A stretch of DNA of 64,000 nucleotides. Origin: Alphaproteobacteria bacterium (GTDB taxonomy: Bacteria > Pseudomonadota > Alphaproteobacteria > UBA828). This document shows, piece by piece, positions 9,964 through 16,810 of this stretch. Numbering within the stretch: position 1 is the first letter of the stretch; each line of letters begins with the position of its first letter. Made by a program: the position numbers and the translations under genes. The notes below the pieces were generated by a model. The model made no database searches and was not told the origin of the DNA. It was given only the letters and a program-made list of their open reading frames with translations. The stretch is taken from assembly GCA_965237415.1 (NCBI GenBank), contig CBDEFM010000002.1, forward strand, positions 2,272,001-2,336,000, written 5' to 3'.

Positions 9964-10639
9964 GGTGGACTCCTTTCTTCCCGTGTGAGGGGGATGGCCA
10001 GAGTCCAGTATTATGTCGTGTCGCGACCGAGGACCCGCAGAAGCGACAGGGCCTAGGAAGACTCACCCGAGATAAGTAGGTGCCGGATATAGTTCGCCAA
10101 CACTGGGATGGAACGGTCCGAGACGCTCGACTTCGTGGACATCTGCGGTCGAGAGTGGGGAGTCCAAATTGCCTGGCTGGAATTCCTGTGGGACGCCCCG
10201 CACCGGACGCGCATCGTGGATCACACCACCGCCGCTCGGAACGGCGAACCCTACGCCGCGCTGATCGATCGCAAGGGATTCGTGCCAAACGTGACGCTAC
10301 GCGCGTGTAGTGGCACATTAAAGAGAGACCGCATTGAGTCCTACGCCCGCCACTGGCTGGGCCTCAAGCGCTGGCACTCCGTCATCGGTCTCCGCGCCGA
10401 CGAGCCGCGCCGGGTGTGGCGCATGCGCGCCATGAACTGCGGCTCGCGCACCGGCGCCCACGCCGTGCTGCCGCTGGCCGACGCCGGCGTCCGCCAGGCC
10501 GACGTCATCGAGTGGTGGAAGCAGCAGCCCTTCGATCTCGGCATCCCATCCTATGCGGGGAACTGCACGCTCTGCATGCTCAAGGGCCGCGCCAAGCTGA
10601 TCCGCCTCATCCGCCAAGACCCCGCCCTTGCGGACTGGT

Positions 10640-10996
10640 AGACCGCAGTTAACTGCACCCCTTGGAAGCGTTGAGAGGCAAACGTTTCGGGTGACCCATC
10701 CGTTTCATCCTCTTTCCGGTCGCGAGTTCGGACTGGTCGAAGTCACGACGATACTGGGGGTGGGGTTGGTCCATTACAGGGGTGATGACGGGGCGTTGCG
10801 CACCATTCGTCAGGCCTGGACAAGCGCTGCGGTCGAAGACCCGTTTATCAGGGTGGCGGCGGGCCGGTCAGCATTCCGTGTCTCGGATCTGCTTGCGTTG
10901 GCGGCATTGCTGGACAGTCTGGACGGAGACGGTTGCGCCGGGAGGGGGGCCGGCGGCGGGACGCGCACTGTCAAGGAGATTTTGCCGCATGTGTAA
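10640..10996 (+). CDS. DUF5372 (Y4bD/Y4pK-like) protein; its likely start lies at the opposite end of the element
   Basis: FRVTHPFHPLSGREF and GRSAFRVSDLLALA motifs; the ORF-track TTG start lies in host DNA. Confidence 0.75.
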   Translation, partial: RPQLTAPLGSVERQTFRVTHPFHPLSGREFGLVEVTTILGVGLVHYRGDDGALRTIRQAWTSAAVEDPFIRVAAGRSAFRVSDLLALAALLDSLDGDGCAGRGAGGGTRTVKEILPHV

Positions 10997-11178
10997 GGAT
11001 ATTTTTGTCCATAAACGGCCAATGCGGGGTGTCCCGGCGACTAGAGATGTGGCAATGATTGACCGTGATGCACGGTATTGCAGCGTATTTTCGCCGATGC
11101 AGGGGAAGAAGGGGCTTGATGTGGTGCCAGAAGTGTGCATAAATATATTTACACTCCTTTCCCGATGGAGCCCGCGCG

Positions 11179-11640
11179 ATGGCCAGACGCCCCACCGACG
11201 CAAAGACCCACACCCTCAGGGAGCACAGCTGCCTGAACCCGCATGCCGAGACGGTGCGCGACGAGCTGTTCCTGTCGAACGCGTTCTTCGACCCGCGCGA
11301 CCTGCTCCAGGTCAGGTACGAGATGCTGCGCCGCGTGCGCGAGGACGGCGTGCCGGTGAGCCATGCCGCGGCCAGCTTCGGCGTCTCTCGCCCCACCTGG
11401 TATCAGGCGCAGCGTGCCTACGAAGCGGGCGGGCTGCCGGGATTGCTGCCGGACCGGCCGGGTCCCCGCCGGCCCCACAAGCTCAGCGACGAGGTGGTCG
11501 AGGCGTTGCAGGCGGCGAAGAGCGAACGGCCGGGGCTGACCGCCGCCGACCTGGTCGAGCTCGTGCGCGCGCGCTTCGGCATCACAATCCATCGCCGCAG
11601 CATCGACCGCGCCCTCGCGCGGGGAAAAAAACGCCGATGA
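11179..11640 (+). CDS. Helix-turn-helix protein of the recombinase element
   Basis: FFDPRDLLQVRYEMLR, FGVSRPTWYQ, PGPRRPHKL; SD upstream. Confidence 0.85.
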   Translation: MARRPTDAKTHTLREHSCLNPHAETVRDELFLSNAFFDPRDLLQVRYEMLRRVREDGVPVSHAAASFGVSRPTWYQAQRAYEAGGLPGLLPDRPGPRRPHKLSDEVVEALQAAKSERPGLTAADLVELVRARFGITIHRRSIDRALARGKKRR

Positions 11641-11939
11641 TGCGCCGCCCGCCGTGCGCCGTGCTCCCCGCAGCGGGCCATTCCGCCTACGGACAGGGCT
11701 ACGAGCGGATGCGCCGTCATGCCGTGGAGCCCGGTGTTGTTCACGACCGCCACGGGCTCGCCGTGGTGGCGCTACGCGGCGTCGCGGCTTGGTTGCACGC
11801 CTTCGTCGACCTGCCCACCCCGCCAGCGGCCGTGTGCACGAGCGCCTCGCCCGAGACGCTGCCCACCGGGGTCGAGACACCGGCGATCGACATTCTCATT
11901 GCCATGCTCAGCCGCCATATGGGGAGGGAGCCAGCATGA
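11637..11939 (+). CDS. Small hypothetical protein of the recombinase element
   Basis: ATGA overlaps with both neighbouring genes; 100 aa. Confidence 0.7.
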   Translation: MMRRPPCAVLPAAGHSAYGQGYERMRRHAVEPGVVHDRHGLAVVALRGVAAWLHAFVDLPTPPAAVCTSASPETLPTGVETPAIDILIAMLSRHMGREPA

Positions 11940-14008
11940 GAGCCGTCCATCAAAAGGTAACCGCGAGCCATCTGAGCCGCGATGCCTACCTGTATGTGCG
12001 CCAGTCCAGCCTACGACAGGTGTTTGAGCATACCGAGGGCACACGCCGCCAGTACGCGCTGCGCGAACGGGCGGTGGCCTTGGGCTGGCCGACCGAGCGC
12101 GTCGTCGTGATCGACAGCGATCTCGGCCTCTCCGGCGCCGACGGCGACCGCGAGGGATTCAAGCGCCTGGTCGCCGAAGTCAGCATGGATCGCGCCGGGA
12201 TCGTGCTCGGGCTGGAGGTGTCCAGGCTCGCGCGGAACTCCGCCGATTGGCATCGGCTGCTCGAGATCTGCGCCCTGAGCGAGACGCTGATTCTCGATGA
12301 AGACGGCGTTTACGATCCCGTCGACTTCAACGACAGGCTCCTGCTCGGGCTTAAAGGGACCATGAGCGAGGCGGAGCTGCACATGATGCGCGCCCGGCTG
12401 CGCGGCGGATCGCTGAGCGCGGCCCGGCGCGGGGAGTTGAAGGTGCAGCTGCCGGTGGGGCTGGTCTACGACCCACTCGGCCAGGTGGTGCTCGATCCCG
12501 ACGCTCAAGTGCAGCACAGCTTGCGCCTGCTGTTCGACACCTTCACTCGGACGGGCTCGGCGCAGGCCACAGTGAGACACTTCAACAACGAGAAACTGCG
12601 ATTCCCGTATCGTCCACGTCGTGGGCCACATAAGGGCGAACTGCATTGGAAGGCCTTGAAGTTCTCGCAGGCCCTGCGGGTGCTGCACAACCCGCGATAT
12701 GCGGGCGCTTTCGCGTACGGGCGCAGCCGGAAGCGGCGGCGTCCCGGCGGCGGCTTCGAGACCAGGAGCGTTCCGCGTGAGGAATGGACGGTGCTGCTGC
12801 GCGATGCGCACCCGGGCTACATCACCTGGGAGCGCTTCGAGGAGAACGAACGGCAGCTCCGGGACAATGCGCAATCCTACGAAGCGAAGCGACGCAGCCC
12901 CCCGCGCGAGGGACCGGCACTGCTGCAGGGCTTGGCCGTCTGCGGCGTGTGCGGCCGGAACATGACGGTGCGATATCACACCCGCAAAGGGCGCCAAAAG
13001 CCCGACTACGTGTGCCAGCGCGAAGGTATTGAGACGGCGAGCGCCGAGTGCCAGAGAGTATCCGGTGCCCCCATCGACCGCGTGGTCGGCGAGCTGCTGG
13101 TGGAGCTGGTGACACCACTCACGCTGGACGTGGCGTTGCAGGTGCAGGACGAACTCGCCGCGCGCGCCGAGGAGGCCGATCTGTGGCGCGCTCAGCAGGT
13201 GCAGCGCGCCCTCGAGCAAGCGGATCTGGCGCGGCAACGATTCATGCAGACCCATCCCGACAACCGGATGGTCGCCGACGTGCTGGAGGCGGAGTGGAAC
13301 GCGAAGCTACGGGCCCTTGACGAGGCACAGCACGAGCTCGAGCGCAGCCGCGCCCAGCCGGGCCCAGGGCTGGACGAACAGCAACGCCAACGGATTCTCG
13401 CGCTGACCAGCGACTTCCCGCGCCTGTGGAACGATCCGCAGACGCCGAATCGCGAACGCAAGCGGATGGCGCGGCTGCTCATCGAGGACGTGACGTTGAC
13501 CAAGGCCACGCGGAGCCTGGGAGTGCGGCTGCGCGGTGGCGCGACCCGAGAGCTCACCTGGACGCCGGATCCACGCGCGTATGAGATTCGCAGGACCAGC
13601 GACGAGGTCGTTGCCGAGATCGACAGGCTGTTGGACAACCACACCGATGGCGAGATCGCATCGATTCTCAACGAGCGCGGATGCCGATCCGGACACGGCC
13701 TCGCCTTTACCATGAACTTGGTGAAATCAACCCGCTGGAACCGATCTCTCAAGTCTCGCTATGAGCGGCTTCGTGATCGTGAGCTGTTGACGGTCCGTGA
13801 GGCCGCCGACCGACTCGCGGTCTCGATCGACACAATCGGGAGATGGCGCCGGGCCGGGCGTCTGCGCGGACACGCCTACAATGACAGACCCGACTACTTG
13901 ATCGAGATTCCCGACCCCCCACCGATCAAACAGGGGAGTCGATGCCCCTCGCAACGAAAGCCGATCCCCAAGCCAGTGTCTCACCGGACTAATGGAGGTG
14001 TAGTATGA
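11936..14008 (+). CDS. Large serine recombinase (resolvase + recombinase + Zn ribbon + coiled coil + HTH)
   Basis: AYLYVRQS catalytic Ser, EVSRLARN, LHNPRYAG, CGVCG..YVC..C; 690 aa from ATG 11936. Confidence 0.93.
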   Translation: MRAVHQKVTASHLSRDAYLYVRQSSLRQVFEHTEGTRRQYALRERAVALGWPTERVVVIDSDLGLSGADGDREGFKRLVAEVSMDRAGIVLGLEVSRLARNSADWHRLLEICALSETLILDEDGVYDPVDFNDRLLLGLKGTMSEAELHMMRARLRGGSLSAARRGELKVQLPVGLVYDPLGQVVLDPDAQVQHSLRLLFDTFTRTGSAQATVRHFNNEKLRFPYRPRRGPHKGELHWKALKFSQALRVLHNPRYAGAFAYGRSRKRRRPGGGFETRSVPREEWTVLLRDAHPGYITWERFEENERQLRDNAQSYEAKRRSPPREGPALLQGLAVCGVCGRNMTVRYHTRKGRQKPDYVCQREGIETASAECQRVSGAPIDRVVGELLVELVTPLTLDVALQVQDELAARAEEADLWRAQQVQRALEQADLARQRFMQTHPDNRMVADVLEAEWNAKLRALDEAQHELERSRAQPGPGLDEQQRQRILALTSDFPRLWNDPQTPNRERKRMARLLIEDVTLTKATRSLGVRLRGGATRELTWTPDPRAYEIRRTSDEVVAEIDRLLDNHTDGEIASILNERGCRSGHGLAFTMNLVKSTRWNRSLKSRYERLRDRELLTVREAADRLAVSIDTIGRWRRAGRLRGHAYNDRPDYLIEIPDPPPIKQGSRCPSQRKPIPKPVSHRTNGGVV

Positions 14009-14348
14009 AGCGTACTCCTGGTGGATCGAGCAGGAAGCCAAGGTCGCCAACCGCACCGGCCCGGACGGCCGCGCCTGCGAATCCATGAAGCGCTTCCGCC
14101 TCGGCGAAACCTACGCCGAGCTCAAGGCCGCGGCGCTTGCCGACCGCGACCTGTTCGACGAAGACGCCGCATCTTCAGACGAGAGCGGCGACTCCCAGTC
14201 CCTCGATTGCCTCTGCACCGATTGAGCCCCCAAGCATGCGCCCGCCCGCCGCGCGGCGCGGAAAGGTCGAGCATGTCCGTCGTGGAGGCGAGCCGGTCGC
14301 CGTGGAGGGGTCCGGCCGTCTCCCAATCCACGCATTCCGGAGCACGCC

Positions 14349-16315
14349 ATGAACGATCCCGTCATCCGACCCATCCCGCTCGACCGCCTGGAGCGCTCGC
14401 CCGCCAACGTCCGCAGGACCGAGGCCGGCAAGTCCGCTTTCGCCGAGCTCAAGGCCTCCATCGCCGCTCACGGGCTGCTCGAGAACCTCGTGGCACGCTC
14501 CATCGGACCCGGTGAAGACGGCGGCGAGCACTACGCCGTCATCGCCGGCGCCCGCCGGCTCGCCGCCCTCAACGACCTCGCCGCCGAGGGCGTACTCGAG
14601 ACCGACCATCCCGTCCCCTGCCGCATCGTCGGCAACGGCGCGATCGACAGCGAGCTCTCCCTCGCCGAGAACGTGATCCGTGTCGCCATGCACCCGGCCG
14701 ACCAGGTGCAGGCCTTCGGCACGCTCGCCGATGCCGGCGCCTCCGTCGCCGATATCGCCGCCCGCTTCGGGGTTTCCGAGCGCATCGTCGAGCAGCGCCT
14801 GCGCCTCGGCAACGCCGCGCCCGAGATCCTCAACTCCTACCGCGAGGGCGAGATCGACCTCGAAACGCTGAAGGCCTTTGCCGTCACCGCCGACCAGGCG
14901 CGCCAGATGGCGGTGTGGGAGCAGGTCAAGGACCAGGGCTACCGGCCGTCCGGTTGGCAGGTGAAGCGCATGCTCACCCAGGACCGGGTGCCCGCCGCGT
15001 CGGCCATCGCCACCTTCGTCGGCGTCGACGCCTACGAGGCGGCCGGCGGCATTGTCGACCGCGATCTGTTCGCGGACGAGGACGAATGGGGCATCTGGTT
15101 CGAGGATGCCGACCTCCTCAGCAAGCTCGCCATGGACCGGCTCCAGGCGGCAGCCGATGAGCTTGCGACCCGCTGGAAGTGGGCCGACGCTCGGATCGAG
15201 GTGAACTGGTCCGACCTCGCCCGCTTCGGCCGCGTGCATCCCACCCCGGGCGAGACCACCGACGAGGAGAAGGCGGAGGTCGAGCGCCTTCACGTCCGCC
15301 ACGACAAGCTCGTCAACATGGACGAGGACGCGTGGACCGGAGAGCTCGCGGCCGAAGGAGAGGCGATCGAGACCCGGCTCGCGGAGATCGAGGCCGCGGT
15401 GGAAGCCCGCGCCGTCTTCCGTCCCGAGGACATCGCGATCTCGGGGTGCATCGTCACCGTCAGCGACGAGGGCAGGATGCAGCTCGTCCAGGGCCTGGTC
15501 AGGCCCGAGGACATCCCCGCTGCCCAGACCAATGACGCTGCCGGAACCGCGCAGGACGGCACCGGCGATGACGACGCCGCCAGCACCGGCACTGGCACCT
15601 CCGGCATCCAGGCTCCCGCGATCTCGGGTCCGGCCATGCCGCCCGCGCGTCCCGACGCTGAGGCCGAAGCGCGCAAGGAGGCGGGCGTGGGCATCGGGCT
15701 CGGCGACGATCTCCGGTCCATCCGCACGGCGCTGGTCAAGGCCCATTTGGCGGAGGATTTCGGGGCGGCCTTCGACCTCGTGCTGTTCCAGATGGGGCAC
15801 GCGGTGTTCACCCCCGGCTACCACGACCACGCGCTCGACATCGCCGTGCGCGAGACCCCGGACCGGCCGCCGCTCCGCGCGAACGATGACGCCTTCGGCG
15901 CCATGAGTCCCGGCGAGGCGATGCTGGCCGACCGCTCGCACCTCTCCTTCGACTGGCTCGCCATCGAGGACCAGGCCGAGTCCTTCACCGCGCTCTGCGC
16001 GCTGCCCGAGACTGACAAGCAGCGGCTCTTCTCCGCCTGCGTTGCGCGCACGGTCAAGGGCCAGCTCGCCTTCGAGGCGAGTGCCCGGCCCGAGCTGGAA
16101 GCCACCGTCGCCCGGCTCGACATCGACTTCGCCGCCCATGTCCGGCCGACCGCCGAGTTGTTCTGGTCGCGCATCCGCAAGGACCGGATGCTCGCCGTGG
16201 CCCGCGAGGTCCTCGGGGTGGAATGGGCGCACGGCCACCGCAAGGACAAGAAGGCCACGCTGTCCACCGCGATGGAGACCGTCTTCGCGAAGTCCGACAT
16301 CGTTCCACTCGGGGT
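14349..16315 (+). CDS. ParB/RepB/Spo0J-family ICE protein, 3' end fused to unrelated sequence
   Basis: SIAAHGLLENL, VIAGARR, SLAENV, HTH IAARFGVSER; reading frame becomes non-homologous after ~16315. Confidence 0.85.
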
Positions 16316-16810
16316 CCCCTCGACGACGTCCCGCTGCCGGAGCCGACCCAACCCTCCGCCGCCAAACTGCCGCCCCGCCCCGAGGCGATCCGCATGGACC
16401 TTGCCGTCCGGCCGGCGCGGGCACCAGGCCGCACGTTCGACTTGCCCGCCGACCTCGTGTTCGCCGGCGAACCCTGGGGCTGGCTCGGCGATGCCATGCC
16501 GCTGGTCGCCGTCGACAGCACGATCCAGCCGCACCAGCTCGCGGAACTCCTGCGCGCCGGGTTCTTCTCGCCGTCCGACGATGCTCAGGCTGACAGCTAC
16601 GAGACCCAGCGCGACCGTTTCGACGAGGAGGCGCTGCACATGGCGACCCGCCTGCTTCTGTCGGACGACGAAGCCTGCCGGACATCGATCGCCGAAGCCG
16701 TCCGTCGCGAGCTGCTCTGGCTCTGCCCCCGCGATCGGGCGGTCGATATCCGGATCCGCCGGCCCGACGTCACGGTGACGCTGGGCGACGCCGGGGAGGC
16801 CACGCCATGA
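16315..16810 (+). pseudogene. C-terminal fragment of an ICE-associated hypothetical protein
   Basis: Protein-like frame (GFFSPSDDAQADSYETQRDRF) with no own 5' end, followed by an overlapping short ORF at 16807. Confidence 0.5.

Follow-up and report, generated by a model that had tools for sequence, protein, structure and literature searches.

Recombination directionality factors (RDFs) of large serine integrases are known as small proteins whose genes are whole in the integrated prophage and which promote excision. In IS911, Tn4451 and IS110, the joining of the two ends in the circular form creates a promoter that boosts expression of the recombinase. For SSV-type integrases, PMC7253208 describes a recombination site inside an open reading frame (ORF) of the element, such that integration splits the gene and only the circle carries it whole. 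We analysed a stretch of 64,000 nucleotides (hereafter the window, to whose first letter all positions refer) from an Alphaproteobacteria bacterium (assembly GCA_965237415.1, contig CBDEFM010000002.1, positions 2,272,001 to 2,336,000), which carries between two copies of CTGGT (10635–10639 and 14018–14022) four co-oriented ORFs on the forward strand: a DUF5372 gene, a helix-turn-helix (HTH) gene, an ORF of 100 aa and a large serine recombinase (LSR) gene. The DUF5372 gene of this element appears to have its start signals at the opposite end of the element, and would therefore be completed by excision.

The two parts of the putative split gene stand at opposite ends of the element in one reading frame. 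At the right end, ATG 14005–14007 overlaps the LSR stop codon TGA (14006–14008) as ATGA, and GGAGGT lies 5 nt upstream of it; this Shine-Dalgarno-like (SD-like) sequence (13994–13999) overlaps the right inverted-repeat motif GGTGTAGT (13997–14004), the two together spanning 13994–14004 of the forward strand. The ATG frame runs for five leader codons, M-K-R-T-P, to the core, and the segment (14005–14020) ends in the right copy of the dinucleotide TG (14019–14020). At the left end, GGT 10637–10639 continues this frame into the DUF5372 ORF (10637–10996; 119 codons and a stop), which is without an ATG of its own and matches Pfam family PF17342 over residues 19–95 (E 5.2e-21; 74.9 bits against a gathering cut-off of 25; profile positions 1–77 of 78). 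The left inverted-repeat motif ACTGCACC (10652–10659, forward strand, zero mismatches) forms the codons T-A-P of this ORF, and the crossover dinucleotide falls within codons 5–6 of the joined ORF. The original prediction had given CTGGT, GGAGGT, ATG 14005, its overlap with the LSR stop, the M-K-R-T-P frame and the GGT register at these same coordinates, and all are present; it had also seen no upstream ATG for the DUF5372 ORF inside the element, which we confirm, and ATGA coupling throughout the operon, which is found between the HTH gene and the small ORF at 11637, between the small ORF and the LSR gene at 11936, and at the right-end ATG at 14005. The LSR gene (11936–14008) is whole in the integrated state; the split gene is DUF5372, not the recombinase.

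The element is a cut-and-paste element moved by its large serine recombinase. Contigs from three public runs of three studies (X1, X3 and X5) join 10634/10635 to 14018/14019. Because they skip exactly 3383 bases, the element can be delimited as 10638–14020 (3383 bp with one copy of the dinucleotide) and an empty site must exist in related populations. Since the 2-nt crossover of serine recombinases predicts equal dinucleotides at both ends, the crossover in the window is placed at TG 10636–10637 (within the shared CTGGT 10635–10639) and TG 14019–14020, each 14 nt from its end motif.

The same plan recurs in relatives from many phyla. A DUF5372 alignment, used to scan species-representative genomes, gave 80 loci, in which the common gene order is DUF5372, HTH, the small ORF in some, and LSR. 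Both ends were located in 56 of 81 loci (L001 and L003–L082), the rest being shortened or at a contig edge, and these represent 47 distinct elements; the right-end motifs of L027 and L028 and the V codon of L061 were placed via a position matrix together with the matching dinucleotide. An inverted 8-nt motif stands at both ends (GGTGCAGT on the right, ACTGCACC on the left), each copy 14 nt from the central dinucleotide, which the two ends have in common in 46 of the 47 distinct elements (TT 34, TG 4, CG 4, TC 2, and AC, AG and CT 1 each); the sole exception is the L011 group. Five plasmid copies in cultured bacteria follow the same plan (NGR234, Rhodococcus opacus, Burkholderia, Aromatoleum and Streptomyces), the end geometry of the Burkholderia and Aromatoleum copies having been read by eye. 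In a Mesorhizobium locus (L091) the DUF5372 part is absent. The DUF5372 domain itself forms 1376 clusters at 50% identity, again across many phyla.

Comparison of the 47 distinct elements shows a conserved start at the right end that opens into DUF5372 across the junction. The codon right after the right motif is ATG in 33, GTG in 11 and CTG in 3, and all three CTG codons are followed directly by ATG, a shift of the start by exactly one codon. In 45 of 47 elements there is an SD-like 4-mer ahead of the start. The right end shows no variation at positions 2 and 3 of the start codon (T and G; 2.0 bits each), and the mirror positions of the left end do vary. The LSR stop falls at eight different offsets around the right motif, so the conservation of this motif is not due to LSR coding. 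Across the virtual junction of the two ends, the start-codon frame contains a stop in 0/47 elements, and the other two frames in 36/47 and 42/47. The linker from the left motif to V-T-H measures 39 nt in 65 of 70 distinct left ends, and the other lengths (36, 42, 45 and 48 nt, one each) are all multiples of 3; a linker value of 64 was rejected as a spurious matrix match in host DNA. The original prediction had asked whether the right-end start is consistently in frame with the left-end DUF5372 among homologues, or whether the frame across the attachment (att) sites is random: it is in frame and open in 47/47, and the linker variants keep it so. Because the pattern recurs in 47 distinct relatives, it goes beyond chance, and the split architecture is well supported at the level of sequence.

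Structure prediction gives a candidate role for the protein. DUF5372 is modelled as a small, SH3-like beta barrel that carries two helices and has a disordered tail (mean predicted local distance difference test score, pLDDT, 69.6). A Foldseek search against the PDB returned only weak SH3/KOW-like barrel matches (best E 5.7e-3) and no functional lead, and DUF5372 had no NCBIfam or PHROG match. The model of a DUF5372–LSR complex passed: its three runs scored 0.76, and the best of three controls 0.00. At least 82% of the contacts are shared between runs, with a partner pLDDT of 67 or more. Among complexes with a solved structure, 58 of 80 attain this level, as do 2 of 110 mismatched pairs; these counts are approximate here, since own alignments were used, and the pass may partly reflect likeness to known complexes, if those were known to the model. 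The predicted contacts on the LSR are residues 335–340 (zinc ribbon), 391–410 and 477–539, the latter two being the segments that leave and re-enter the zinc-ribbon domain around the coiled coil. On DUF5372, they are residues 21–26 and 69–96, including the invariant T-H-P-F-H-P and G-R-S-A-F-R motifs. We infer from this model that DUF5372 binds the LSR at its zinc-ribbon domain and coiled-coil base. The base of the coiled coil and the surface of the zinc ribbon are where known directionality factors bind. Thus, the suggestion in the original prediction of a directionality factor is favoured by the predicted contact (0.76 against 0.00 in controls) at the site used by such factors, and the direction of the effect is a guess.

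A cycle of excision and integration may be outlined from these elements. In the integrated state, one promoter (about 11116–11144) would drive the HTH gene, the small ORF and the LSR gene, and transcription would leave through the right end; DUF5372 lies upstream of that promoter with neither ribosome site nor start codon. Recombination of both ends at the TG dinucleotide would then yield a circle in which the DUF5372 body continues the reading frame opened by the SD and ATG behind the LSR gene, with five codons ahead of the crossover, so that the promoter would read the HTH gene, the small ORF and the LSR gene and continue across the junction into DUF5372. Comparative evidence suggests that full-length DUF5372 would be made only from the excised circle or a head-to-tail junction. 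The protein may change which pair of sites the LSR recombines, most likely by favouring re-integration (attP × attB) or by blocking the reverse reaction while the element is circular; integration would split the DUF5372 gene again and thereby reset the switch. As a whole, our best explanation, which we consider probable, is that the DUF5372 gene is completed by excision and that its product is an LSR cofactor acting in the circle. DUF5372 would then be, as we infer, a directionality-type cofactor made only in the excised state. A factor acting in the circle is favoured because a canonical excision factor that could be made only after excision makes no sense. More tentatively, and on balance doubtfully, DUF5372 could be a directionality factor that works in the reverse sense and whose production depends on DNA topology, with excision carried out by the LSR with the HTH and small proteins, integration promoted by circle-made DUF5372, and the state then reset. 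If true, a widespread family of serine-recombinase transposons would contain a two-state switch complete in itself. Most members of this family target the catalytic-glutamate motif of DDE transposase genes and would thus be parasites of insertion sequences (IS).

Several observations weigh against an excision-completed DUF5372 gene, and the first group concerns start codons in the integrated state. Inside the element, GTG 10691–10693 (forward strand), the V of V-T-H-P-F-H-P, is the only in-frame start before the DUF5372 domain; it has GAGG 12 nt upstream and is the start used by gene callers. Because the interrupted host gene points the same way as DUF5372, a shortened product may be made from this GTG in the integrated window copy. 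Some in-frame start at or before V is available in 42 of 67 distinct left ends, the window copy included, this being the V codon only in 25 and another start in 17. Codons −10 to −5 relative to V are without coding periodicity, as are codons −10 to −1 overall (1.38/1.47/1.39); only −2 and −4 look coding, codon −2 having an invariant second base and a free third base. Among 18 called proteins examined, the right-end leader stood at the N-terminus in none.

These data would fit an ordinary DUF5372 gene that uses an internal start when integrated, with the right-end ATG and SD merely reflecting the binding site of the recombinase. Internal starts are used by gene callers and RefSeq, and most database DUF5372 proteins are 101 aa long and begin M-T-H-P-F-H-P, from GTG; V is encoded by GTG in 37 of the 67 left ends, and the right-end SD does overlap the inverted repeat. 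However, V is encoded by GTC in 21 and by GTA in 9 (30/67 in total), and in 25/67 left ends the stretch between the boundary and V, V included, lacks any in-frame ATG, GTG or TTG. Upstream of V stand conserved residues and, just before it, the first strand of the predicted fold. The annotated RefSeq starts disagree (GTG six codons before V in NGR234, ATC in Aromatoleum, ATG ten codons before V in Burkholderia), and the start of the domain ranges from residue 1 to residue 118 of the called protein across the 150 best cluster representatives. A start borrowed from the host by in-frame fusion can be excluded for most relatives, whose interrupted host gene runs on the opposite strand. Binding of the recombinase does not account for the right end either, since the mirror half-site lacks conserved start-codon bases and the CTG variants carry ATG exactly one codon on. 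We therefore regard an ordinary gene with an internal start as unlikely. Translation from an internal GTG, which the original prediction had named as a refuting case, fails as a general rule. Its claim that DUF5372 is made only from the excised circle is supported by the right-end starts of the relatives and the 25 startless left ends, and its word "only" is less secure for the window copy, given the internal GTG and the co-oriented host gene.

The geometry of the ends raises further points against an excision-completed gene. With the att spacing fixed at 14+2+14 nt, the frame relation is already given, and the individual elements do not test it independently of one another. The SD also shares bases with the inverted repeat, and the T-A-P codons are the repeat in translation. 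In locus L068 the virtual junction is interrupted by a stop; its two dinucleotides differ, as do those of L011. We read the right end of L068, which diverges 9 nt after the start and was left out of the 47 elements, as disrupted. L011, L013 and L058 are three copies in one genome; L011 ends in TT and CG and the others have CT at both ends, which suggests an exchange between copies.

Given this geometry, the right-end SD and ATG might instead serve outward translation into the host, yielding a short peptide or a fusion, and the frame match would be a by-product of symmetric att sites. The integrated ATG does open a short frame into the flank, and geometry alone would fix the frame relation. But copies of one element have different flanks (L022/L023 and L027/L028), and in most relatives the flanks are antisense to the target gene, so no conserved outward product results. 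Moreover, outward translation leaves unexplained both the stop-free junction frame in 47/47 elements and the in-frame changes of the linker. We consider it highly improbable.

The joined form occurs in nature, and its rarity is another point to be set against our reading. A junction pattern that matches only the right end, the junction and DUF5372 was scanned against sequence collections, and three metagenome contigs matched, of which two are true. One (L084) carries the LSR 3' end, the junction, a DUF5372 ORF of 112 codons from GTG and then the HTH gene; the other (L085) carries the LSR 3' end, the junction and an ORF that begins with ATG and is cut by the contig edge. The third (L083) was rejected as a circle junction, since it consists of two elements in head-to-head orientation, their left ends abutting. 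Its spacing (L083:3064–3774) is 14+2+14 nt, as in a true junction, and it could be a recombination product of inverted copies or an assembly chimera. Besides the two true metagenome matches, the scan found junctions in 0 viral contigs and in 0 of 401 genomes of the phylum. This rarity implies that the junction is no stable chromosomal arrangement, as expected for a transient circle. For the window element itself, the assembled contigs showed empty sites and, among the joints listed, no circle junction (back-joint), an absence that speaks neither for nor against circles.

The two true junction contigs fit a circle or a tandem alike, and the joined gene might thus be expressed from chromosomal head-to-tail tandems rather than from free circles; L083 does show that two elements can abut. 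Tandems are nevertheless very unlikely to be the source, because the junction had no match in the 401 genomes of the phylum, none was seen among the 80 species-representative loci, and serine recombinases acting on direct sites give circles. Finally, two points against our reading concern the protein. In the models, the first ~15 residues of DUF5372 are disordered and take no part in the predicted interface, and because codons −10 to −5 are also non-periodic, the leader may only supply the start. The DUF5372–LSR complex, for its part, rests on a model.

The remaining genes of the element form one co-oriented operon on the forward strand. The HTH gene (11179–11640; 153 aa; HTH_32 E 2.5e-11) has GGAG at 11167–11170. 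Its product matches the N-terminal ~100 residues of transposase models (IS630 E 4.8e-16, IS481 E 2.6e-15, IS21 E 3.4e-4), and because all of these matches are far below the cut-offs, only the DNA-binding part resembles transposases; the three types are those of the genes into which the relatives insert. The small ORF (11637–11939; 100 aa), with an ATGA overlap at both ends, belongs to no family known: it had no Pfam, NCBIfam or PHROG match, and tblastn finds it in relatives at 30–78% identity. The LSR (11936–14008; 690 aa) comprises Resolvase (PF00239, residues 17–167, E 3.8e-18), Recombinase (PF07508, residues 194–311, E 3.2e-14) and Zn_ribbon_recom (PF13408, residues 329–384, E 6.8e-08), and R22, Q23 and S24 as well as C336, C339, C360 and C372 are invariant among 39 sequences. 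At its C-terminus, residues 617–647 (13784–13876) resemble an excisionase-type HTH (HTH_17 E 3.1e-05; TIGR01764 E 6.3e-05; both below cut-off). A promoter-like sequence, TTGATG and ATAAAT separated by 17 nt (11116–11144, forward strand), precedes the operon; it is kept in an alignment of 14 close relatives, as is the GGAG before the HTH gene. A simple consensus promoter scan returned 0 sites, thus neither 11116–11144 nor any site across the element ends.

The host gene of the window copy encodes a PAPS-reductase-like protein and not a transposase. Its 5' part (10108–10637, forward strand; phrog_424 E 9.2e-25) belongs to an ORF (10108–10641) that meets TAG 10639–10641 inside the element, and in the empty-site contigs it is rejoined to 14018 onward. 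Its 3' part (14021–14225, forward strand), in the frame of ORF 14085–14225, is there joined to 10634/10635. The host gene adjoins a ParB-like gene (14349–16778), and the neighbourhood is plasmid-like or resembles an integrative and conjugative element. A second copy in the same genome (L002) is decayed, with 85% identity and a truncated LSR gene, and lies within an IS21-like element.

Most relatives are inserted in genes for DDE (rve) transposases, on the opposite strand, at the codons of a K-G-K-(V/I)-E-R motif (L018, L032, L065, L066, L067, L075 and other TT-type loci), the target consensus being drawn from 35 flank pairs. Fragments of the right flank match PF00665 up to profile position 101–102 of 102 in 6 of 10 cases, and the other 4 have no rve match; the Aromatoleum copy adjoins istB of ISAzo4. 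The DUF5372/LSR family thus seems to hunt insertion sequences. The closest clade of the window copy has varied dinucleotides (TG, TC, CG, AC, AG and CT) and not TT. A recombinase-binding motif shifted by 5 bp was not seen in the target sites. One predicted protein of 2691 aa (P0126) contains 15 separate matches to the DUF5372 profile.

The design appears to be undescribed, in keeping with the original prediction, which knew of no description for the family. A literature search, with supplementary files outside its scope, found no paper that names DUF5372 or PF17342, none that treats the y4b genes of NGR234 as one element, and none that describes this element. If our reading is true, the element reports its own state, integrated or excised, through the wholeness of a gene and needs no regulator for this, which would account for the directionality of the cycle in a minimal serine-recombinase transposon. 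A domain of unknown function would thereby also receive a function, its discordant annotated starts would be explained, and serine integrases, which serve as tools of genome engineering, would gain a new small cofactor.

Among known loci, the set on pNGR234a of Sinorhizobium fredii NGR234, whose genes we take to be y4bA–D and y4pH–K, has the same four genes in the same order, the third being a small "transposase" and the fourth a recombinase 54% identical to the window LSR. Its ends follow the same geometry: the right end has GTG-ATG, and the frame across the junction is open. The set is annotated as four separate genes rather than one element. Among known mechanisms, the circle-junction promoters of insertion sequences and Tn4451 are similar in that joining of the ends creates an expression signal of the excised form. 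In contrast, the promoter here appears to be internal, and the joining would assemble the reading frame of a different protein instead of −35 and −10 boxes. DUF5372 would also resemble the RDFs of large serine integrases (e.g., the SPbeta RDF), being a small protein predicted to sit on the zinc ribbon (DBD2) and the coiled-coil base. It showed no likeness to known RDFs in sequence or fold, its only matches being the DUF5372 family and weak SH3/KOW-like folds; since it can seemingly be made only after excision, its effect may run opposite to theirs. By analogy, the nearest concept is the SSV-type ("suicidal") integrase of archaeal viruses and plasmids, in which the crossover likewise lies inside an ORF of the element, as it does here in DUF5372. 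In the SSV type, however, the split gene is a tyrosine integrase divided into two large parts, whereas here the serine recombinase stays whole and a small accessory gene is split, with only the SD, the start and five codons on the far side.

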